In this document: piece after piece, positions 12,325 to 22,434 of the stretch
Numbering within the stretch: the first letter of the stretch is position 1
How the letters are laid out: each line of letters starts with the position of its first letter
NCBI GenBank assembly: GCA_037481775.1
Contig: JBBFKZ010000002.1
Span: 86,453-150,452, forward strand
DNA length: 64,000 nt
Source of the DNA: Candidatus Bathyarchaeia archaeon
GTDB taxonomy: Archaea; Thermoproteota; Bathyarchaeia; Bathyarchaeales; Bathycorpusculaceae
Direction: 5' to 3'
The notes under the pieces: generated by a model
Databases searched by the model: none
What the model saw: only the letters and a program-made list of their open reading frames with translations
What the model was told of the DNA's origin: nothing
Made by a program: the position numbers and the translations under genes

Positions 12325-14862
12325 ATGAAGTTGATCAAATGCAAGACCTATACTGCAATTGCTATTCTAACATTCGCCATGGCAATATCGCTTGTCGCTT
12401 TACCCGCAACTGCACAGCCAGGCGTAACCCGCGCATCTTTCCCCATACTCGACGTCGTTCCTAACCCCGTCGGCGTGGGTGAAAACGCGCTCATCCGCTT
12501 CGGTGTAATGCAGCAACTGCCCAGCGTATACGATGGCTACGAGGGTTTAACTCTCACAATCACCAAGCCAGACGGCACAACCGAAAACTTCGGTCCATTC
12601 AAGACTGACTCAACAGGCGCAACGTTCATGAACTATGTTCCCGCGACTACAGGCACATATAAGGTGAAGATGGTCTTCCCTGAGCAAATCTGGAAATGGG
12701 GCAACTTCTACAGTGCTGAAAGTGGCAGCTTCATATACAACGGAACCACCATAAAAGGTAGCACAATCGAAATGGAGTTCGAAGTTGTAGCGGAAAAGCG
12801 AGAGACTTACCCTGGACACCCATTACCATCAGAATACTGGACGCGCCCAATTGATCCGCAGCTACGTGAGTGGGCCACGGTCTCTGGCAACTGGATGGCA
12901 CGACCTGACAACTCGCTGGCGCTTTATAACGCTGATGCACCTGAAACAGCTCACGTATTGTGGGTTAGGCAGCTGACTACTGGCGGCTTAAACGGCGGAT
13001 ACTGGGGAGATGCACAGCTACCTGTAGGCGCTGAAACAGGCGACCCCTACGAAGGCAAATGGGCTAACTCAGTTGTAATGAATGGAATTCTCTATTACAA
13101 TAGAGACTCCGCAACAGTAGCGAACAACACAGGAATTGTCGCGGTGGATCTACATACTGGAGAATTGCTCTGGGAGAAACTCGGCGTTTCTCTGTCCTTC
13201 GGGCAAATTCTTTACTTCAACGGTTGGAACATGGACGGCTCATACAATTACCTATGGTCAGTAAGTGGAACCACGTATAACGCATATGACCCATTCAATG
13301 GCGCATGGATCTACACAATGACAAATGTGCCTTCAGGTACACGAGTTTTCGGTCCTAGCGGCGAAATTCTCATCTACCAATTTAACTTCGCAAACGGTTG
13401 GATGGCCATGTGGAACTCAACTGCAGCCGGCCAAGCCAACGGAAACTTTAGAGACCCAGGAAACTTCGGCAGCTGGGCTTCTTACATGCGGCCGCTTGTC
13501 CACGGCGTAACATTCGCTGCTAACACCACTGGCGCTTACTCATGGAACGTATCAATACCCGCTGGCTTACAAGCATCAGCATCCTTCGGCGCAACCACAG
13601 TGAAAATATACCCTGACCGCGTAGTAGGCGTATACTACAACCAATCACTTGTCCGCGTCTGGGCTCTAAGCACTAAAGGCTTAACAAAGACATCCACATC
13701 CACCTCGCTGCTATTCGACAAAACATGGACTGCACCATCCATCTGGAGCGAAGGCTCTGTCACAATACACTATACTGGCGCCTCAAACAACCTTGAAGGC
13801 GGCGTCATCGCTGTCTGGTGCAAAGAACTCCGCAAGCACTACGGCTTCAGCGTAGAAACCGGAAACTATCTATGGGAAACAGAATCTGAGCACTTCCTAG
13901 ACGCTTATGGCTGGGGCAACGCTGAGCACACATGGTACTTCGCTTATGGCAAACTATACTCAGTCGGCGTCGGCGGCATCTTGTACGCCTATGACTTGAA
14001 GACCGGCAAAACAGCGTGGACCTACGAGCTCAACGACCCCTACAGCGAATCTGTCACAGGACAAAACTGGTGGGGCTGGATAGCCTTAATTGCAGACGGC
14101 AAAGTCTACCTCGCTCACTGCGAGCACAGTGCTGAGCAGCCTCTGCCTCGCGGCGCGCCATTCGTGTGCTTGAATGCTGAAACAGGCGAAGTGATTTGGC
14201 GTGTTAACGGCATGTTCCGCGGCACCCGGTGGGGTGGCAACGCCGTTATCGGCGACAGCATCATCGCCACCATGGACACGTATGACCAGCGCATCTACGC
14301 CATCGGGAAAGGCCCAAGCGCTACCACTGTTACAGCATCTCCAAAAGTTTCAGTACATGGCAGCAAAGTACTTGTGGAAGGAAGAGTCACCGACATTTCA
14401 CCTGGCCTAGATGACACTGTCATTCGCAAGAGATTCCCGAACGGTGTGCCCGCAGTAGCTGACGAGTGCATGAGCGAATGGATGCTCTATGTCTACAAGC
14501 AATTCGAATGCCCCGCAAACATTAAAGGCGTTGAAGTAGTCGTTGAGGTACTTGATCCCAACGGCAACTATTACGAAGTTGCCAGGACCACAAGTGATGG
14601 CAGCGGCTTCTACAGCGCCACTTTTGATCCACCAGTGCCTGGCAAGTATACAATCGTTGCCCGCTTTGGCGGCTCTAAGGCTTACTACGGCTCTTATGCT
14701 GAAACATCTATATTCGTAGAAGAAGCACCACCAGCTGCACCCACAGCAACACCAGCAACTGAATCAATCGCAGATATCTACTTCGTGCCCGCAGTCATTG
14801 GCATCATCGTAGCAATAGTGGTTGTAGGTCTTGTAATAGTACTGATGCTTAGAAAACGATAA
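12325..14862 (+). CDS. Secreted, C-terminally anchored PQQ-like beta-propeller protein (paralogue 1)
   Basis: Signal peptide, PNPVGVG, repeated AxDxxTGxxxW blades, C-terminal TM plus RKR. Confidence 0.88.
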   Translation: MKLIKCKTYTAIAILTFAMAISLVALPATAQPGVTRASFPILDVVPNPVGVGENALIRFGVMQQLPSVYDGYEGLTLTITKPDGTTENFGPFKTDSTGATFMNYVPATTGTYKVKMVFPEQIWKWGNFYSAESGSFIYNGTTIKGSTIEMEFEVVAEKRETYPGHPLPSEYWTRPIDPQLREWATVSGNWMARPDNSLALYNADAPETAHVLWVRQLTTGGLNGGYWGDAQLPVGAETGDPYEGKWANSVVMNGILYYNRDSATVANNTGIVAVDLHTGELLWEKLGVSLSFGQILYFNGWNMDGSYNYLWSVSGTTYNAYDPFNGAWIYTMTNVPSGTRVFGPSGEILIYQFNFANGWMAMWNSTAAGQANGNFRDPGNFGSWASYMRPLVHGVTFAANTTGAYSWNVSIPAGLQASASFGATTVKIYPDRVVGVYYNQSLVRVWALSTKGLTKTSTSTSLLFDKTWTAPSIWSEGSVTIHYTGASNNLEGGVIAVWCKELRKHYGFSVETGNYLWETESEHFLDAYGWGNAEHTWYFAYGKLYSVGVGGILYAYDLKTGKTAWTYELNDPYSESVTGQNWWGWIALIADGKVYLAHCEHSAEQPLPRGAPFVCLNAETGEVIWRVNGMFRGTRWGGNAVIGDSIIATMDTYDQRIYAIGKGPSATTVTASPKVSVHGSKVLVEGRVTDISPGLDDTVIRKRFPNGVPAVADECMSEWMLYVYKQFECPANIKGVEVVVEVLDPNGNYYEVARTTSDGSGFYSATFDPPVPGKYTIVARFGGSKAYYGSYAETSIFVEEAPPAAPTATPATESIADIYFVPAVIGIIVAIVVVGLVIVLMLRKR

Positions 14863-14900: not shown

Positions 14901-15074
14901 GACCACCCTTCTAAGTCTAAATCCAATAGACAACATTTAGCTTGCATTCACAAGCCAAACCTGACAAGACAGAACCGTGCACGACAAAAAGCGGCCAAAT
15001 CCAAAATTTTAACATGGAAAGAGTAAAACAAATTAACCGAAACAGACTTTGTGTATAACCCGCAAATAAAAAGG

Positions 15075-15090
15075 CGAAGTAGCTATATAC
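15075..15090 (+). promoter_or_regulatory. Putative native tRNA-Val promoter (BRE-TATA), now upstream of attL/int(C)
   Basis: CGAAGTAGCTATATAC about 30 bp upstream of the tRNA 5'-half copy. Confidence 0.5.
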
Positions 15091-15105
15091 AAGAAAGAAA
15101 GTAGA

Positions 15106-15981
15106 ATGACTCAGCGGGCCGGTAGTCTAGCTCGGTTAGGACATCTGCTTGACGTTGACGTTCCTTTGATTAATTGGAGCGATTTTAGGGATTGGATTTT
15201 GAAAAAGTATGCCAAATCTAATGCTTCTACAATTTACTGTTATGCTAGGAGGTATGCGTTTATGCTTAATGGAGACTTCAAGGAGCTAGAAACTTTCAGC
15301 GGTAGCAAAAAGAACGCAGTTTTGAAGGCCCTTATTGCCTTATCCAAGTTTCTGGGAATTTATGAACAGTTTAGGGCCACTCTTTCGAGGCATGGCGTTA
15401 AGTTTGCGAGAACAGACTCTCTTAATGCATTTCTAAGAATAATGAGCAATAATAGCGAGGATTTGCTTGAGTGGTATTCTAAAGCTGTTAGTGTGCTTAG
15501 AGAAAACGGAAAGCTGTTTTTACGGTTTGCTTTAATTTCTGGGTTAAGAAAAGCTGAGGCCATTAAAAGCTTCAATTTAATTATTTCCTTAGCTAAAGAA
15601 AACAATTTGAAAAACTACTTTAATGAAGATTTGTCATGTCTAGAACACTTCAAATTTAAACAGCTATTCTTAAGAGGCAAAAAGAACGTTTACATAACCT
15701 TTATTCCTAAAAGCATGGTTAATGAAATAGCGAATAGTGAACCAATAACCTATGAGGCAATTAGGAAAAGACTTCTCAGAAATGGTTTGAATCTTAGAAT
15801 TAACGAGTTGAGGGATTATTTCGCTACTTTCATGGTTCAGCATGGTTTAATCCGCGAAGAAGTGGATTTGCTTCAAGGCCGAATTCCGCCAAGCTTGTTT
15901 GTGCGTAGCTATTGGACTCCCAGCTTAAAAGAGCTAAGAGATAGAACATTAAAAAACATAACAAGGCTTTCAAATTTATGA
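15106..15981 (+). CDS. Int(C): catalytic part of split tyrosine integrase
   Basis: SGLRKAEA, RGKK, ELRDYFAT, LLQGR, RSYW motifs; N-terminus RAGSLARLGHLLDV is encoded by the att site. Confidence 0.88.
   Translation: MTQRAGSLARLGHLLDVDVPLINWSDFRDWILKKYAKSNASTIYCYARRYAFMLNGDFKELETFSGSKKNAVLKALIALSKFLGIYEQFRATLSRHGVKFARTDSLNAFLRIMSNNSEDLLEWYSKAVSVLRENGKLFLRFALISGLRKAEAIKSFNLIISLAKENNLKNYFNEDLSCLEHFKFKQLFLRGKKNVYITFIPKSMVNEIANSEPITYEAIRKRLLRNGLNLRINELRDYFATFMVQHGLIREEVDLLQGRIPPSLFVRSYWTPSLKELRDRTLKNITRLSNL
15115..15155 (+). repeat. attL: 5' half of tRNA-Val(GAC)
   Basis: CGGGCCGGTAGTCTAGCTCGGTTAGGACATCTGCTTGACGT, identical to 19613-19653. Confidence 0.95.
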
Positions 15982-16005
15982 TGTAGCGAATTTGAGGGTG
16001 TTAAA

Positions 16006-16536
16006 ATGGTAGCGGGTGCTAAGTGTAGCGATGTTTCGCCCAAGATTGAAAGCAGAATTTTGGAGCAAGTTGAAAAGCTTTGCTTGTTTGAGTTGCTATT
16101 TATAGAGGAGTTTAGGGAAAATGTTGAAGGCTTAAGTGCAAAACAACTTTTAGAGTTGATAAACGATTTTCTAAGTGGTGAGCATGGAGAAGTAGAAGCT
16201 TATCTTTTCCTAAAACTTTTAGCTTATTATCCTAAATCCATGGCGAATTATCAACTTACTCCTTTAATGCAAACTTTAATCACAAGCGCATATTACATTG
16301 GACAAAGCGGCTTCTACACTTCAAAGTTGAGCATGGAAGATTTAGCTAAAATTTTCCATAGAAGCAAAAAAACAATCTACGACTGCATTAAAAAGCATCA
16401 AAAAGCTATTGAAGAAAACTTCAAACCCGTTATGGAAGAGGAAAAACTAAGAATGAAAGCTCGAGAAATAGCTCTGAGGGAGCTTGTGGAAGAGGAAAAG
16501 CTGCGGCTTAAGCAAGAGGAAAAGGGAAACAAGTAA
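16006..16536 (+). CDS. Hypothetical protein with HTH and C-terminal coiled coil
   Basis: LSMEDLAKIFHRSKKTIYDCIK HTH-like segment; GAGG RBS. Confidence 0.6.
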   Translation: MVAGAKCSDVSPKIESRILEQVEKLCLFELLFIEEFRENVEGLSAKQLLELINDFLSGEHGEVEAYLFLKLLAYYPKSMANYQLTPLMQTLITSAYYIGQSGFYTSKLSMEDLAKIFHRSKKTIYDCIKKHQKAIEENFKPVMEEEKLRMKAREIALRELVEEEKLRLKQEEKGNK

Positions 16537-16669
16537 ACAAGCGCTTTGCGAGGACTGAGAGGTAATATTATAAAGAAAAATTTTCTTGAAAAGTTTACTT
16601 TTCCCATAGTTTCCTGTTTCAATCAACATTAGAGGTATAAAGTTGCATAGGGCAAGTTGAACGAGCTTG

Positions 16670-17299
16670 CTAAGTATTTCTTAATAATGCTTTTCTGAAC
16701 ATTCTCCAATCCGTTTTAACGTAGTCGCTTAAAACTTCAATGCTTGTTAAACCCACAAACTCTTTCAATATGAATGGGTTAGAGAATGTTTTTCCATACC
16801 AAGATTCTCCTTGACTTCTAAACCAATGAGGCCATTGGCCCGTAACGTAACGCACAATCTTAAAGGCCCTGTTCCTTCCAAACTTAAACAGTCTATCCTC
16901 AGGTTTCTCTATACGCTTAAGGTAGTCTAAAACCAATTTTGTGAAGGGTGCTAATGGGCCTTCTTTCGGCAATGGCACTTCATCACGTATAGCCCTTGAC
17001 TTCTTTTTCGCCTTCTTTTTCCGTTTAACGACAATCATGTTGTGGATTATAACAAAGTCTGGTTCGCTTTCTAAATCGAATTGTTTATGCTTTAAGCTGA
17101 GAACCTCGCTAACCCTTCCACAAGTCAAATAGAGAAGGGCCATAAGTGCCTTGTCTCTTAACTCATAGAATTCCTTGTTTATTTTGTAAGGCCACGCTTT
17201 ACTAGTTATAAGCCCATAGATTTCTGAAGGCCTCAGAAAGTAAATGTCGTTTAGGGTTCTGCGTTTAACTCCTATTAACCATGGCCTTGGCATTAACAT
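16670..17299 (-). CDS. Second tyrosine recombinase (Xer-like, catalytic domain only)
   Basis: RDKAL...LYLTCGRVSEVL, K-rich loop, PHWFR, C-terminal DY. Confidence 0.82.
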   Translation of the reverse strand: MLMPRPWLIGVKRRTLNDIYFLRPSEIYGLITSKAWPYKINKEFYELRDKALMALLYLTCGRVSEVLSLKHKQFDLESEPDFVIIHNMIVVKRKKKAKKKSRAIRDEVPLPKEGPLAPFTKLVLDYLKRIEKPEDRLFKFGRNRAFKIVRYVTGQWPHWFRSQGESWYGKTFSNPFILKEFVGLTSIEVLSDYVKTDWRMFRKALLRNT

Positions 17300-17592
17300 T
17301 TAACCTCGCTCAGTTTTTCAACAACAAGCGTTTTTCTTCCTTTACGGTTCAACTTGTAAGATTCCAGAACCTTCTCAATGGGACGGTCTGAGAAAACATC
17401 TATGATGGCCTTTAACAGCATCGCTTTACCCTGAAACCCCTCACTTATCGGATAAACAGAATCCTCGCTCTCAAAAATAACCTTTAACAAGCGTAAAATA
17501 TCCTCGAAGGTGAACACTTCACCATAAGCCCAAACCCTAACAACCTTATCATTTGGCCCTTTCCGGCCATTAACAATTTCAAACTTAACCAT
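17293..17592 (-). CDS. Hypothetical protein of the element
   Basis: ORF coupled to both neighbours; ATG at 17592 preceded by GGAAGGTG. Confidence 0.6.
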   Translation of the reverse strand: MVKFEIVNGRKGPNDKVVRVWAYGEVFTFEDILRLLKVIFESEDSVYPISEGFQGKAMLLKAIIDVFSDRPIEKVLESYKLNRKGRKTLVVEKLSEVKC

Positions 17593-18503
17593 TAATGGCC
17601 ACCTTCCAAAACGCAAAAATCAGAACGCGAACGCATTCCCAACCCTTTAGGACACAAAACTGAATAGGGATTCGCTGCGTTTACCCTTCCGCAATCCAAA
17701 CATCGCTTAGGAATAGGTTTAGCTGACAAGATTCTTTCAGCTTCCTCTATTACGTTCACTTTAACTGAACTCTGATTTGTGTGTGTGCTGTCTATAACTT
17801 CTTCTTTTATTCTCTCTTTAGCCTCTATGCTTGGTGGCGAGACAACCTCCGAAACGGTTTTCTCGCGCTCTTTCCCTTGGAGAAACTGTTGTATTTTTTT
17901 ATTCTCTTCCTCATATAAGCTACACACACGCAAAACTTCTTTGGAAACCTCACAGCTTTCATTAAATTCTTGTTGAAGATTAACGCCTTCCTGAGTTTCA
18001 TAAGGTTCTTGTTGAGGGTTAGCGGTTTCTTGAAGTTCATAAGTTTCTTGTAAAACAGTTTGTTCTGTGTAGTAGGGCATAAGTTCATGGTGGATAATGT
18101 AGTGGGTTTCTTTGCCTTCTTTATCTTTTGAAATATAGCCTAAAATTTCTAAAAGGCCTTTCTTTGCTGAAAGCCTACGTTCATTCATATATTCAAATTG
18201 GGCCACTTTTCCGCTCACTCGGTTCATTCTTACAATTTTGCTTAGGCCCATGTGTCTTTCAGTTTTCTCTGGCCTTCCTATGTAGCGTTCTATTGTGCGT
18301 TTGTCGTTTGAACCGAAAAATTGGATAAATTCCCACTCGAGGGTTTCATAGCTACATTTTTTGAGGCCTACTTCCCATAAGTGCGTCATAAATTCTGAGG
18401 CTCTATTTAAGCTTATGAAGGCGCCACGTTTCAGAAAACGGAGGAATTTTGGTTTTGTCGTAAAATTTTTAAGTGTAAACTTGCCTATTTCTGAATTGTC
18501 CAT
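17592..18503 (-). CDS. Hypothetical 303-aa protein with C-terminal Cys4 zinc-finger-like motif
   Basis: GGAGG RBS; CLDC...C...C at C-terminus; Q/E-rich internal repeat. Confidence 0.7.
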   Translation of the reverse strand: MDNSEIGKFTLKNFTTKPKFLRFLKRGAFISLNRASEFMTHLWEVGLKKCSYETLEWEFIQFFGSNDKRTIERYIGRPEKTERHMGLSKIVRMNRVSGKVAQFEYMNERRLSAKKGLLEILGYISKDKEGKETHYIIHHELMPYYTEQTVLQETYELQETANPQQEPYETQEGVNLQQEFNESCEVSKEVLRVCSLYEEENKKIQQFLQGKEREKTVSEVVSPPSIEAKERIKEEVIDSTHTNQSSVKVNVIEEAERILSAKPIPKRCLDCGRVNAANPYSVLCPKGLGMRSRSDFCVLEGGH

Positions 18504-18536
18504 AGTTTTCCTCCTTTTTTGTTTAAACTCTAAAAT

Positions 18537-18668
18537 TCACGCTCCTTTTTGCTTAGTGCGAATTTTTGAGCCTCTGGTGTGTTCGCATTTTGGACATTTT
18601 AGCGGGTTTTCTACTCGTGGAATCCAATTGTGGCCGCATTTTTCGCATTTCAATTTTGGCAGTTGCAT
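18537..18668 (-). CDS. Small zinc-ribbon protein (43 aa; not in ORF track)
   Basis: MQLPKLKCEKCGHNWIPRVENPLKCPKCEHTRGSKIRTKQKGA; two CxxC. Confidence 0.75.
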   Translation of the reverse strand: MQLPKLKCEKCGHNWIPRVENPLKCPKCEHTRGSKIRTKQKGA

Positions 18669-18747
18669 GAGTTTCTACCCCATATTCTATATGATGCGAA
18701 AGTATTATATAAGTCAAGATATAACATAATTAATCGAGAGTGGATAC

Positions 18748-19353
18748 ATGTCAAAAGCAAAAAGCGATTATCATATGCCAAGGAAAACTGAGAGTTTGCC
18801 ACTATTACAGAAAAAGATAATCATTCATTTAGCTGAAAATGGCCCTCAAACCGTAAATGAAACCGTAAACAAAATAGAGCATCATTATAAACCTACATGG
18901 ATAGCTTTTCAAAGTTTAGAGAGAAAAGGGTTAATTAAAAAAGTGAATGTCAAACTATATAGAGGAAGAGAGTATCCTCAATTTTGGTTGAGCGAGGATT
19001 GTATAATTTTGGCTTTCATCGAAGGAGCTTCTAAAAACGCTTTATTCAAAAAAACTAAAGAGGTTTATCCAGCTAACAAGAACCTTCATGCTTTCCTAGA
19101 TTTCGCTTCAATATTCAATCCAGAGGTTTGGGAAATAGCGTATTACGCAATTAGAAGGAAGGGCACACTTGAACCCATAGATTTAGCCACTATAATGTTT
19201 ACTCAAATGGATTCAGATGTAAGCATTGAAAAAATCAAGGAAGGGTTAATTCATCTCAAGAAATACCCTGAAATGCTTGAATTCTTTAAGAAGTATATGG
19301 AAAGTTTAGTTAAAGTGATAGAGTGTGTTTTAGAGGTGTTAGAACATGAGTAA
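18748..19353 (+). CDS. Winged-helix transcriptional regulator
   Basis: QKKIIIHLAENGPQTVNE...FQSLERKGLIKK wHTH pattern. Confidence 0.75.
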   Translation: MSKAKSDYHMPRKTESLPLLQKKIIIHLAENGPQTVNETVNKIEHHYKPTWIAFQSLERKGLIKKVNVKLYRGREYPQFWLSEDCIILAFIEGASKNALFKKTKEVYPANKNLHAFLDFASIFNPEVWEIAYYAIRRKGTLEPIDLATIMFTQMDSDVSIEKIKEGLIHLKKYPEMLEFFKKYMESLVKVIECVLEVLEHE

Positions 19354-19693
19354 AAAAACAGGTTTGAACCTAACTTCCTCGAGGAGTTTAGACAATTTTC
19401 CTCGAGGAAAATCTCACAGAGAAACCGACACTAAAACAACTGTGGGCCTATACCTTCCCAAAATCTTAGTGGAAAAAGCTCGAAAACAAGGTTTAAATCT
19501 TTCAAAAATTCTCGAAGAAGCTTTATCTTCAATATTAAACTATATGGAAGCTCAAAACACCGAAAACGAAAGCTCTATATTTCTTAATCGACTTTCTTTT
19601 CAGAAAGAAAGTCGGGCCGGTAGTCTAGCTCGGTTAGGACATCTGCTTGACGTGCAGAAGGTCGCCGGTTCGAGTCCGGTCCGGCCCACCTAA
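19346..19693 (+). CDS. Int(N): N-terminal part of split integrase with RHH (CcdA-like) domain, reading through the tRNA
   Basis: TTVGLYLPKILVEKARKQGLNLSKILEEAL; then RAGSLARLGHLLDV in the same frame as int(C). Confidence 0.8.
   Translation: MSKKTGLNLTSSRSLDNFPRGKSHRETDTKTTVGLYLPKILVEKARKQGLNLSKILEEALSSILNYMEAQNTENESSIFLNRLSFQKESRAGSLARLGHLLDVQKVAGSSPVRPT
19614..19688 (+). tRNA. tRNA-Val(GAC) (contains attR)
   Basis: GGGCCGG/CCGGCCC acceptor stem; TCTGC-TT GAC GT-GCAGA anticodon arm; GTTCGAGT T-loop; discriminator A. Confidence 0.95.
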
Positions 19694-19980
19694 TTTTTTA
19701 ATTACTATGAAAACCAAAAGCAAATAAGAAAAGCTACAATAAAAAGTAAAGTTTCTGTTAGTAATGTCTAAGAAAAAACTTCATTTTTGTATCAAATTGA
19801 TTTTTAGAAATGGGTCAGCTTTTGTCTGTATTGAGCGGGGCATATTAGTAATTATGATTTAGCCGCGACCCGCTAGTTTAACGGATCATTTGCTTACTGA
19901 CTAAAACAAAATTTTAAAAGGATTCTGGTGGTGAACAATATTCAGCGCGGTAGTGCGCAAAATTAAGGAGAAAATGACAA

Positions 19981-22434
19981 ATGAGCTCTGAAAAGAAAGA
20001 AGCCTTGGTTGCTTTGACTCTGATGTTTGCTATGGCTTTTTCGCTTGTCACTTTGCCAATCGCTAATGCCGCCGATATCCCCACTTACGCCTTTCTTAGC
20101 GTAGCACCAAACCCCGTAGGCGTTGGACAAGGTGTCTCTGTCGTTTACTGGCTAGATAAAGTACCTCCAACAGCAAGCGGGCCGCTAGGCGACAGATGGC
20201 AAGGCTGGAAACTTGAAATCACAAAACCTGATGGAAAAATTGAAACGGTGAATCTCGGGCCCTCCGATGCCGCCGCATCAGGATACCTAAAATATACACC
20301 CGATCAAATCGGAACGTACTACTTTAAACTCACTTTTCCAGGTCAAAACATAACTGTAGGCAACACGGTGAACTACTACAAGCCGTCTGAAAGCTCAAAA
20401 GTTGCGTTAACAGTACAGGAAGAACAAGTAACACCAATACCCTACAATCCTCTACCGACGGAGTATTGGAGTAGGCCCATATATGCTGAAAATCATGGCT
20501 GGAACCAGTTAGTAAGCAACTGGTTAGCAGGCGGCTCCGCTGGCCCTCACGGACCACGAAGCTACGATTTGAACGGAAACTTTAACCCGTACGGCACAGC
20601 ACCAAATGCACCACACATTATGTGGACCAGAGAAATAGCTTTTGGAGGAATAGTCGGCGAAAAAACAGAAGACATCAACTATTTCCCAGGCGAAACCTAC
20701 GATCGCAAATTCCAACCACCAATAATAATGCACGGAAGGCTTTATTTCAACCAACGTTTAGGAGTCGCAAGTTGGCAGGGGCTCTACTGTATTGACTTAC
20801 AGACAGGCGAAGAAATATGGTTCAAGAATGGCACAACAGTAACTTTCGGACAGCTGCTTAACTGGCAAACACCCAACGTGCACGGCATCATCCCATTTCT
20901 CTGGAGTGTTTCTGGAACAACCTACAAAATGTATGATGCCTTTACTGGCGACTGGTTGCTTGACATCGCAAATGTCAGCTCGGGAACGATGCTTTATGGG
21001 CCGAGCGGTGAATTTCTTATATACAGGCTCGACGGCGCCACCAATACCTTAACGCTGTGGAACTCGTCCAAAGTTCTAGAGTCTTCTATGAGCGCTGTTT
21101 GGTACTTCAGACCTGTGGGTCCTGTTATTGATGGCAATAAGGGCTACGAGTGGAACATAACAGTTCCAGATATGCCAGGCGCCCAAAGTATACTAAGAAT
21201 CAAGGATGGCGTACTCTATGCAAGAGCAACGTACACTGACGGTCCACCAGGAGGAACAAAAGTGGGCGATGTGGCGTATGACATCAGCTTTGACAGTATC
21301 AAGAAGGGCTCCACAGGGAAATATCCTACTTCAATCAATAACCTGTGGGGACCTGTAAACCGCACATTCGAGGGTAGCTTGCTTAACGGCTTCATAGATC
21401 GCGACATACTGCCAGTGTTTGTGAAAGAAACTATGGTCTGGTATGGCTTCAACGTTAGAACAGGCATGCAAGTTTGGGGACCTACAAAACCATACGAGAA
21501 CGCTTGGGGTGTTTATCAGCCATACGCCGACTGGCAATCCGCGTATGGCATCCTTTATGCAGCTGGTTACGATGGTACAATACATGCATATAACATCACA
21601 ACTGGCGAAAATATTTGGAATTTGTATACTGGCTCAAGTAGGCTAGAAACCGTCTATGGCCATTATGTGTTCAAAGATAGCGCCATGTCGATTTGTGATG
21701 GCAAACTCTATGCTGTAAATAACGAGCACTCGCCTTCTTCGCCTCTATACCGTGGTTCAAAGATGTACTGTATCGATGCTATTACGGGTCAGACGTTGTG
21801 GAACATTTCTTTCTGGGGCTTATTCCCGGTGATTGCTGATGGATATGCTGTTGCGTTTAACTACTATGATGGGCGCATCTATTGTTTCGGTAAAGGTGCG
21901 AGTAAGATGACAGTTGAGGCGCCATTAGTGGCCGTTACTCAGGGCCAAAATGTAGTTATCAGAGGAACAGTTACGGATGTTGCTTCAGGTGCAACTCAAA
22001 AAGAGCAGGCAGCACGGTTCCCCAATGGTTTACCCTGTGTCTCTGACGAAAGCATGAGTGACTGGATGGAATACGTTTACATGCAGCAACCTAAGCCGGC
22101 GGACGTGAAAGGCGTTGAAGTCGTTGTCGAGGTGCTGGATCCAAACGGCAACTGTTACGAGGTTTCGAGAACGACGAGTGATGCAAGCGGCTTTTTCAAG
22201 GCGACGTTTGAGCCGCCTGTGCCCGGAGAGTACACTGTGATTGCCCGGTTTGCTGGTTCAGGGTCTTATTGGCCTTCGCATGCTGAAACCGCCATAGTAG
22301 TCGAGGATGCTCCGCCTGCTTCGCCTCAGCCTACGCCTGTGCCTCAGGCGCCGGTTGAAACCTACTTTGCTGTTTCCACGGTTGCTATCATCGTTGCGGT
22401 TGCTGTTGCTGTCGTGTTGCTTAGGAAGCGATAG
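19981..22434 (+). CDS. Secreted, C-terminally anchored PQQ-like beta-propeller protein (paralogue 2)
   Basis: Same architecture as 12325-14862; shared RFPNG..VxDE.MS.WM.YVY and VEVLDPNGN. Confidence 0.88.
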   Translation: MSSEKKEALVALTLMFAMAFSLVTLPIANAADIPTYAFLSVAPNPVGVGQGVSVVYWLDKVPPTASGPLGDRWQGWKLEITKPDGKIETVNLGPSDAAASGYLKYTPDQIGTYYFKLTFPGQNITVGNTVNYYKPSESSKVALTVQEEQVTPIPYNPLPTEYWSRPIYAENHGWNQLVSNWLAGGSAGPHGPRSYDLNGNFNPYGTAPNAPHIMWTREIAFGGIVGEKTEDINYFPGETYDRKFQPPIIMHGRLYFNQRLGVASWQGLYCIDLQTGEEIWFKNGTTVTFGQLLNWQTPNVHGIIPFLWSVSGTTYKMYDAFTGDWLLDIANVSSGTMLYGPSGEFLIYRLDGATNTLTLWNSSKVLESSMSAVWYFRPVGPVIDGNKGYEWNITVPDMPGAQSILRIKDGVLYARATYTDGPPGGTKVGDVAYDISFDSIKKGSTGKYPTSINNLWGPVNRTFEGSLLNGFIDRDILPVFVKETMVWYGFNVRTGMQVWGPTKPYENAWGVYQPYADWQSAYGILYAAGYDGTIHAYNITTGENIWNLYTGSSRLETVYGHYVFKDSAMSICDGKLYAVNNEHSPSSPLYRGSKMYCIDAITGQTLWNISFWGLFPVIADGYAVAFNYYDGRIYCFGKGASKMTVEAPLVAVTQGQNVVIRGTVTDVASGATQKEQAARFPNGLPCVSDESMSDWMEYVYMQQPKPADVKGVEVVVEVLDPNGNCYEVSRTTSDASGFFKATFEPPVPGEYTVIARFAGSGSYWPSHAETAIVVEDAPPASPQPTPVPQAPVETYFAVSTVAIIVAVAVAVVLLRKR

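Follow-up and report, generated by a model that had tools for sequence, protein, structure and literature searches.

Suicidal integrases (Pfam family PF16795) are divided into SSV, pTN3-like and pT26-2-like groups in PMC8371274 and PMC7253208, and together with PMC6563490 these sources place such enzymes so far mainly in hyperthermophilic Sulfolobales, Thermococcales and relatives, with a single case in Thaumarchaeota. In the pTN3-like group (Thermococcales; IntpTN3, TKV-type) the attachment site attP lies inside the integrase gene int, and the chromosomal site attB is formed by a tRNA gene's 5′ half. On integration an intact tRNA is re-formed beside the N-terminal gene fragment, int(N), where it needs expression from element DNA, while the C-terminal fragment, int(C), acquires the native tRNA promoter upstream and has a start codon in frame (PMC8371274). 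We analysed a stretch of 64,000 nucleotides (nt) from a Candidatus Bathyarchaeia archaeon (contig JBBFKZ010000002.1, positions 86,453–150,452; called the window below, and its positions are used throughout). The window very probably contains a cryptic integrated element of 4498 base pairs (bp) in the 5′ half of a tRNA-Val(GAC) gene, with an SSV-type suicidal integrase gene that was split by integration. The traits listed for the pTN3-like group all appear to recur in it.

The borders are marked by an exact direct repeat of 41 nt whose copies are spaced 4498 nt apart, the sole exact direct repeat of at least 25 nt found by script on the + strand of the 64-kb window. The G+C fraction is 0.35–0.41 between the copies and 0.46–0.55 in the flanks. 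The parts on which the argument turns, including the two open reading frames (ORFs) that read the repeat, are these (aa, amino acids; RHH, ribbon-helix-helix):

15115–15155, + strand: attL, the left 41-nt copy, one base plus tRNA-Val positions 1–40; similarity to the empty sites of congeners stops exactly at 15155.
19613–19653, + strand: attR, the right 41-nt copy, one base and then tRNA-Val(GAC) positions 1–40.
19614–19690, + strand: intact tRNA-Val(GAC) (ARAGORN; Rfam tRNA, 65.4 bits).
15106–15981, + strand: putative int(C), C-terminal integrase fragment, 291 aa from an incidental ATG, core-binding and catalytic domains (PF16795).
19346–19612, + strand: putative int(N), 89 codons, RHH N-terminal domain and linker; the integrated ORF continues through the tRNA to 19693.

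The repeat is thus part of the tRNA gene, and an intact tRNA is re-formed at the right, as is characteristic of suicidal integrases; no tRNA is called at the left copy, and tRNA-Val(GAC) is single-copy in the genome assembly, which is 96.7% complete. The ORF at 15106–15981 begins nine bases ahead of the left copy and the ORF at 19346–19693 (115 aa) passes through the right one; in both, the repeat is translated in phase 0, as RAGSLARLGHLLDV. The preliminary description of this DNA had noted the repeat and its common frame, which our repeat search bears out, and had predicted a 4498-bp circle with a fused 377-aa frame. That arithmetic holds: joining 19346–19612 to 15115–15981 by coordinates gives 1134 nt, 377 codons and zero internal stops. 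An 11-mer, AGAAAGAAAGT, occurs at 15092–15102, 12 nt before attL, and again at 19602–19612, abutting attR; it could reflect chance, the DNA being rich in purines, or be an arm-type site of the integrase.

The repeat spans tRNA positions 1–40 and the intact tRNA stands at the int(N) end, the arrangement of pTN3-like integrases. Use of the 5′ half, which had been contrasted with SSV1 in the preliminary description, is therefore real here and yet not novel, as it defines the pTN3-like group in PMC8371274. Unlike that group, the element has a host in Bathyarchaeia rather than Thermococcales, an RHH/CcdA-like N-domain, a length of 4.5 kb and no recognised replication gene. A tblastn search with int(C) of 72,556 PLSDB plasmids, a collection in which the presence of pTN3 is unverified, gave no match at E≤0.001.

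Against Pfam, int(C) scores 38.6 bits with PF16795 (cut-off 27; E 1.3e-9). It covers positions 125–331 of the 355 in phrog_5127, a start that leaves about 124 N-terminal positions of the PHROG profile absent from int(C). In an AlphaFold2 model built with 24 homologues (pLDDT 82), int(C) comprises a helical core-binding and a catalytic domain. Foldseek aligned the model with the full-length archaeal Xer 4a8e (E 6e-4, 307 columns) and with the SSV1 integrase catalytic domain 3vcf_A (TM 0.68, rmsd 4.1 over 181 columns, probability 1.00), so that the modelled fold resembles both the SSV1 catalytic domain and the two-domain archaeal Xer. Sequence searches of the PDB with int(C), with an int(C) profile and with a second, 209-aa recombinase of the element (below) gave nothing usable. 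The SSV1 integrase (Fuselloviridae) is the founding member of PF16795. The element is like SSV1 in its above-cut-off PF16795 match, its catalytic-domain fold and its probable int(N)/int(C) partition on integration. It is unlike SSV1 in having no recognisable viral structural gene and in its target, SSV1 using the 3′ part of its tRNA according to the preliminary description (a general 3′ preference is given in PMC8371274). There were zero tblastn matches to int(C) in a phage and virus collection, and no relative was found among IMG/VR viral contigs.

The N-terminal piece matches the CcdA/RHH family PF07362 over residues 30–71 (24.1 bits, cut-off 22.4). The match is confined to the RHH region, and no CcdB-type toxin gene was found in the element with Pfam and NCBIfam. 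The CcdA match nevertheless belongs to a rival account, in which the integrase is not split at all: the ORF at 15106–15981 would be a complete recombinase, and the ORF starting at 19346 a separate RHH protein (a regulator, a directionality factor or something antitoxin-like) that ends in the tRNA by chance. Several findings lean that way and weigh against a split gene. By its model, int(C) alone already holds both domains of a simple tyrosine recombinase and matches full-length Xer over those 307 columns, so a stand-alone enzyme is conceivable; translation could also start at an ATG of its own, behind a promoter-like box. In databases, homologues of either piece almost always appear as separate ORFs. 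Among the candidates scored there are 492 int(C) homologues at E≤0.001, and the 120 listed are mostly 270–330 aa, only two reaching 340 aa. A HMMER scan with the 89 residues of int(N) gave 154 cluster representatives at E≤0.001; the 150 listed are all 57–186 aa, none of them unsplit, and a search with int(N) limited to longer proteins also gave none. The family yields 18 matches in 41 related genomes (the window's own, G000, and 40 relatives), with no open frame above 321 aa.

What the short homologues contain points the other way. Complete int(C) homologues lacking the N segment had been named in the preliminary description as evidence that would speak against a split, and they seem abundant (118 of the 120 listed are shorter than 340 aa), yet those inspected are split copies with tRNA-derived starts. 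Twenty were fetched, chosen for closeness or length and not at random: five start with the same tRNA-Val peptide, and others with peptides typical of different tRNAs in either orientation. Two in this set, P0055 (366 aa) and P0072 (363 aa), have a complete N-terminal domain. P0055 is an unsplit form with a zinc-ribbon N-domain. P0072 unites CcdA/RHH (residues 13–47) and PF16795 in one chain, in the order RHH, att, catalytic region of the joined frame, and is colinear with both fragments: int(N) residues 29–72 align with its residues 10–53 (41% identity, pairwise E 7e-7) and int(C) residues 8–288 with its residues 77–352. This distant protein is the only place where an unsplit copy of int(N)'s type of N-domain was seen, which counts among the points in favour of separate genes.

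Of 36 int(N) homologues read by eye, 32 run clearly into tRNA-type peptides, three partly and one not, the recognition being the analyst's own motif judgement; the tRNAs are varied, in both orientations, and are preceded by the RHH domain and a conserved linker. For a k-mer test, the 108 of the 150 listed homologues with a long enough tail were compared with six-frame translations of the genome's 36 tRNAs. Two or more exact 5-mers were shared by 84 of the 108 tails, and the mean number of hits was 6.83 for tails, 0.149 for shuffled tails and 0.074 for N-terminal parts (one of 108 with two hits). A 4-mer version was dropped for its high shuffled background (45 of 108 with at least three hits) and 5-mers and 6-mers were used instead; the test itself replaced a regular-expression count of tRNA-type peptides (83 of 150), discarded as crude since it missed obvious cases.

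A second element supplies a parallel. A Bathyarchaeia metagenome-assembled genome (L005) holds a 5905-bp element in tRNA-Val(GAC), bounded by 44-nt repeats of the tRNA 5′ half. Identity to the window element is 76% for int(C) and 70% for int(N). The L005 repeat copies are in phase, their joined frame of 383 aa is stop-free, and a tyrosine recombinase and a winged-helix gene occupy the same positions as in the window element. It is an independent second case with the same anatomy. At L005:403–1611 lies a further integrase of 402 aa (PF00589, N-terminal zinc ribbon) that ends 12 nt before the L005 attL and may represent a further element at this tRNA, in tandem or as a remnant.

We accept the split because RHH ORFs without a stop of their own end in whichever tRNA adjoins them, which a stand-alone gene has no need to do. 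The att copies are in phase in both independent elements. With P0072 joining the two parts in one polypeptide, the N-terminal stretch of the PHROG profile absent from int(C), and the CcdB-like partner of a CcdA antitoxin not found in the element, we regard two separate genes as very improbable. The SSV1/pTN3-type gene partition proposed in the preliminary description is thus supported by the in-frame att copies, PF16795, the L005 parallel, the N-fragment tails and P0072.

The preliminary description also suggested looking for an empty tRNA-Val site in relatives, and such sites exist in four of the five other genomes of the same genus. The left flank was searched in the same 41 genomes, and an orthologue of its PQQ-type gene is present in all five. 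In G001, G002, G004 and G005 the flank is 78–86% identical, and no more than about 200 nt further on stands an intact tRNA-Val(GAC) (77/77, 76/77, 77/77 and 77/77 positions identical, respectively) with no element; the contig of G003 stops short of the site and is uninformative. The left junction of the window departs from these empty sites exactly at the end of the repeat. Since congeners have empty sites, the insertion is younger than the genus. On the other side, the DNA 3′ of tRNA-Val is not conserved among congeners within the 1.2 kb compared. The flanking genes at 12325–14862 and 19981–22434 are paralogues from a large family of PQQ/beta-propeller proteins, secreted or anchored in the membrane, with Ig-like domains at the C terminus, and left-flank DNA alone matches nine places in G000 and many in congeners.

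Duplication of the 5′ half has cut the intact tRNA-Val at attR off from its native upstream region. Two boxes may bear on its expression:

15082–15090, + strand: TATA-like box, probably of the native tRNA-Val promoter, conserved in the empty sites of four congeners (alignment).
19571–19583, + strand: promoter-like box AGCTCTATATTTC, of putative function, inside the int(N) coding sequence and 43 nt ahead of the intact tRNA.

The first box now precedes the partial tRNA copy and int(C), with the in-frame ATG at 15106. The second recurs as an identical 13-mer at equal distance upstream of a native tRNA-Lys(CTT) (G000, contig C25), and L005 retains 12 of its 13 bases. We infer from these matches that the element carries a host-type tRNA promoter inside its integrase gene. 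The sequence upstream of tRNA-Lys(CTT) was considered as the int(N) end of a third element; this was rejected, as there is no RHH ORF and no repeat, and it is read as a native promoter.

The rest of the element is occupied by six ORFs:

16006–16536, + strand: helix-turn-helix protein, 176 aa (PF04297, E 6.6e-6, 26.7 bits, cut-off 22.7; weak NCBIfam YlxM-type hits).
16670–17299, − strand: second tyrosine-recombinase-like protein, 209 aa, catalytic region only (phrog_1, E 2.4e-11; PF00589, E 4e-5).
17293–17616, − strand: conserved protein, 107 aa, 49% identical to a 114-aa ORF of L005; no family hit in Pfam or NCBIfam.
17592–18503, − strand: 303-aa protein with a winged helix (about residues 30–140), a variable acidic middle and a C-terminal Cys-rich motif.
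18537–18668, − strand: zinc-ribbon ORF, 43 aa, doubtful as a real gene; weak zinc-ribbon Pfam hits only.
18748–19353, + strand: putative winged-helix protein, 201 aa; weak TrmB hit, E 0.064.

The 201-aa gene overlaps the start of int(N) by 8 nt, which suggests that the two are in one operon. The layout as a whole suggests two divergent operons, with the 201-aa gene, int(N), att, int(C) and the 176-aa helix-turn-helix gene on the + strand, and the 43-aa zinc ribbon, the 303-aa and 107-aa genes and the 209-aa recombinase on the − strand. At the position of the 201-aa gene L005 has a 204-aa ArsR/MarR-type winged-helix gene, with no BLAST similarity between the two.

The 209-aa protein scores 23.9 bits with PF00589, under the cut-off of 27.1. 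It keeps R62 (Arg-I), an H158-x-x-R161 box and a C-terminal Tyr, R62 and R161 being invariant in an alignment with three other integrases; it has no SAM-like N-domain, and Leu stands at the expected His-II. L005 has a 290-aa Xer-like gene at this position. Possible roles of the 209-aa protein are dimer resolution and excision, and decay is a further possibility.

The 303-aa protein has 39 homologues, not one of which carries a Pfam domain; the homologues with a named source are all from Bathyarchaeia, and relatives of the 303-aa and 107-aa proteins come only from Bathyarchaeia and unnamed metagenome proteins. Its AlphaFold2 model exceeds pLDDT 90 over about residues 30–140, a predicted winged helix with a long beta-hairpin. 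Foldseek gave 0 PDB matches at E≤0.001, the best weak ones being winged-helix proteins (AspA, ArsR, Sso10a), and the best ESM Atlas score, 0.76, is under the level counted as a lead. The C-terminal Cys-rich motif is 62% identical over 40 residues to an 81-aa ORF of L005. Comparison of window positions 17755–17766 with the strain contig L002 (described below) and sequencing run X4 shows a strain difference in this gene, a roughly 84-nt insertion in the variable, acidic, Q-rich middle; the gene also has a 39-nt imperfect tandem repeat at 17957–18034.

No replicase, capsid, packaging or conjugation gene was recognised with Pfam, PHROGs and NCBIfam (the 43-aa ORF falling outside the NCBIfam scan), and Pfam and NCBIfam found no primase/helicase Rep of the pRN1 kind in the element. 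The eight ORFs give no structural PHROG or Pfam hit, although remote homologues of virion proteins may lie beyond the reach of hidden Markov models. By these scans the element encodes integrase, recombinase, helix-turn-helix, RHH and zinc-ribbon proteins only. The earlier view that capsid, conjugation and replicase genes are not recognisable is in this way upheld by three profile collections and one fold search. An element that has an integrase and att sites, and in which no hallmark gene of viruses, conjugation or transposons is found, is what Krupovic et al. (2019) call a cryptic integrated element.

Such elements are known from Thaumarchaeota, where they range from 2.6 to 98 kb and include NitEve-E3, with a split SSV1-like integrase, and NitUzo-E2, of 2.6 kb (PMC6563490). 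The window element is like them in being small and tRNA-integrated and in combining an integrase with winged-helix and hypothetical proteins and no identifiable replicase or virion genes (same source); it is unlike them in host class and gene set, and it also has a second tyrosine recombinase. No paper on split integrases in Bathyarchaeia was found in the literature searched, although supplementary integrase lists might contain such sequences; a paper on Bathyarchaeia viruses (PMC10848311) mentions integrases in its excerpted text, and gene partition is not mentioned there. The preliminary suggestion of an undescribed family therefore amounts to no more than the lack of a report in that literature. 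Small cryptic elements of this kind are already on record in Thaumarchaeota (PMC6563490).

Matches to the integrase family occur in 12 of the 41 related genomes. The nearest sequences are copies of the element itself. A JGI contig of 4678 nt (L001) is 100% identical to window positions 15029–19706, and a 1.86-Mb contig (L002) is 98–99% identical and has the element at the same site, with the repeats 4595 nt apart. A second mini-element of about 3.6 kb lies in the window's own genome (G000:C7:39917–43613, equivalent to L007:11918–15614). Its int(C) is 51% identical, its int(N) has a zinc ribbon in place of RHH, and it adjoins the 5′ end of an oddly predicted 97-nt tRNA. This C7 element is probably decayed, since its distal repeat is degenerate (28/31) and its halves are out of phase, in which it resembles TpiCDGS_IP1 (PMC7253208). 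A 7.3-kb metagenome contig (L004) carries a distant integrase of the family (51% identity) and an 827-aa PriCT_1 primase-type protein at L004:3559–6042; it probably represents a plasmid-like relative that brings a replication gene of its own, and its PriCT_1 protein indicates that different backbones share this integrase family.

The family also shows traits of the pT26-2-type integrases (Badel et al., 2020; PMC7253208), namely varied target tRNAs and N and C moieties that evolve separately: P0122 has a 76%-identical int(N) that runs into a different tRNA in the opposite orientation, and RHH or zinc-ribbon N-domains occur on similar C parts. The pT26-2-type integrases differ in preferring the tRNA 3′ end (PMC8371274) and in their hosts, Thermococcales, Archaeoglobales and Methanosarcinales.

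On the 3′ side of tRNA-Val, L002 is without the window's PQQ-type gene even though the genome is 98% identical, and this difference marks that side as a second variable hot spot. There (L002:14731–20640) L002 has an ORF of 438 aa that resembles a tyrosine integrase but has no Pfam hit at E≤0.01, then a CRISPR array of at least 42 repeats. Contig C3 of G000 has 34 copies of a CRISPR repeat identical to that of the L002 array. The 41 spacers of the L002 array, compared with the elements, gave only chance matches of 10–15 nt.

Whether the element still moves is a separate matter. The anatomy may be that of a split integrase and the element now an immobile relic, fixed in its lineage and inherited vertically; we hold this to be possible though doubtful. 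All 16 public runs considered were assembled contigs (Logan), and four of them supplied the read evidence. Every contig of the four runs ends in or at the 41-nt repeat, and a contig that breaks there would reveal neither an excised circle or attP junction nor an empty site; no circle or attP junction was seen. The points that weigh against a mobile element are these. The same element occurs at the same site in L002 (98% identical) and in contigs from the four runs, which belong to four studies (one maybe the source DNA), and the near-identical L002 copy fits vertical inheritance rather than recent movement. Element and flanks have equal depth (8.5 against 9.2–9.8 in run X1; 33.9 against 29–32 in X4), which gives no indication of a free form in many copies. 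The 96.7%-complete assembly has no unsplit copy of the integrase family, its two copies (contigs C2 and C7) both being split, and the C7 element is degenerate as described. Against a relic, the repeats of the window element are still identical over 41 nt, all its ORFs are open, the joined 377-aa frame is intact, and the insertion is younger than the genus. The L001 contig stops 86 nt short of attL and runs 16 nt past the tRNA, as would be expected of a branch in the assembly graph at those places, which is only a hint. A joint of 20200 to 14604 in run X2 was considered as an att junction and rejected, since it lies at the ends of the compared stretch.

The course of events that we favour for a split, integrated element is as follows. 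The genome's one tRNA-Val(GAC) gene would receive the element in its 5′ half by site-specific recombination. The attP would lie inside the integrase frame, between the N-terminal RHH domain and the core-binding and catalytic part; with attP in the reading frame, integration splits the gene, leaving int(N) at attR to run into the intact tRNA and int(C) at attL after the partial tRNA. The free form would be a 4.5-kb circle with a 377-aa integrase. In the integrated state the intact tRNA would be transcribed from the host-type box that lies in the final codons of int(N), or else as part of the int operon, and the native tRNA promoter would now face int(C) with its in-frame ATG. The free form, if there is one, might be replicated by host functions that the element's winged-helix proteins recruit, or with the aid of a helper element.

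A bolder version makes the split a directionality switch. Here the int(C) recombinase would act with the free RHH protein, or with the second recombinase, to excise the element, only the fused 377-aa form would integrate, and the tRNA would be kept alive by the promoter in the integrase codons. We think this unlikely. If it were true, int(C) would be driven by the captured native tRNA promoter and the ATG at 15106, and the tRNA promoter within the integrase codons would tie an essential host gene to the element.

We read the integrase as suicidal and pTN3-style, a member of a large branch of that family in Bathyarchaeia that is undescribed in the literature searched; the kind of system is not new. 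What it adds is a large suicidal-integrase family in Bathyarchaeia, with target switching and mixing of N and C parts as in the described families. The promoter logic is already known from pTN3-like elements, so only the embedded box is a new detail; it would offer a concrete example of a tRNA promoter embedded in coding sequence. The element is about minimal in size, which makes it a handy test case for how an element that destroys its own integrase gene leaves the chromosome.

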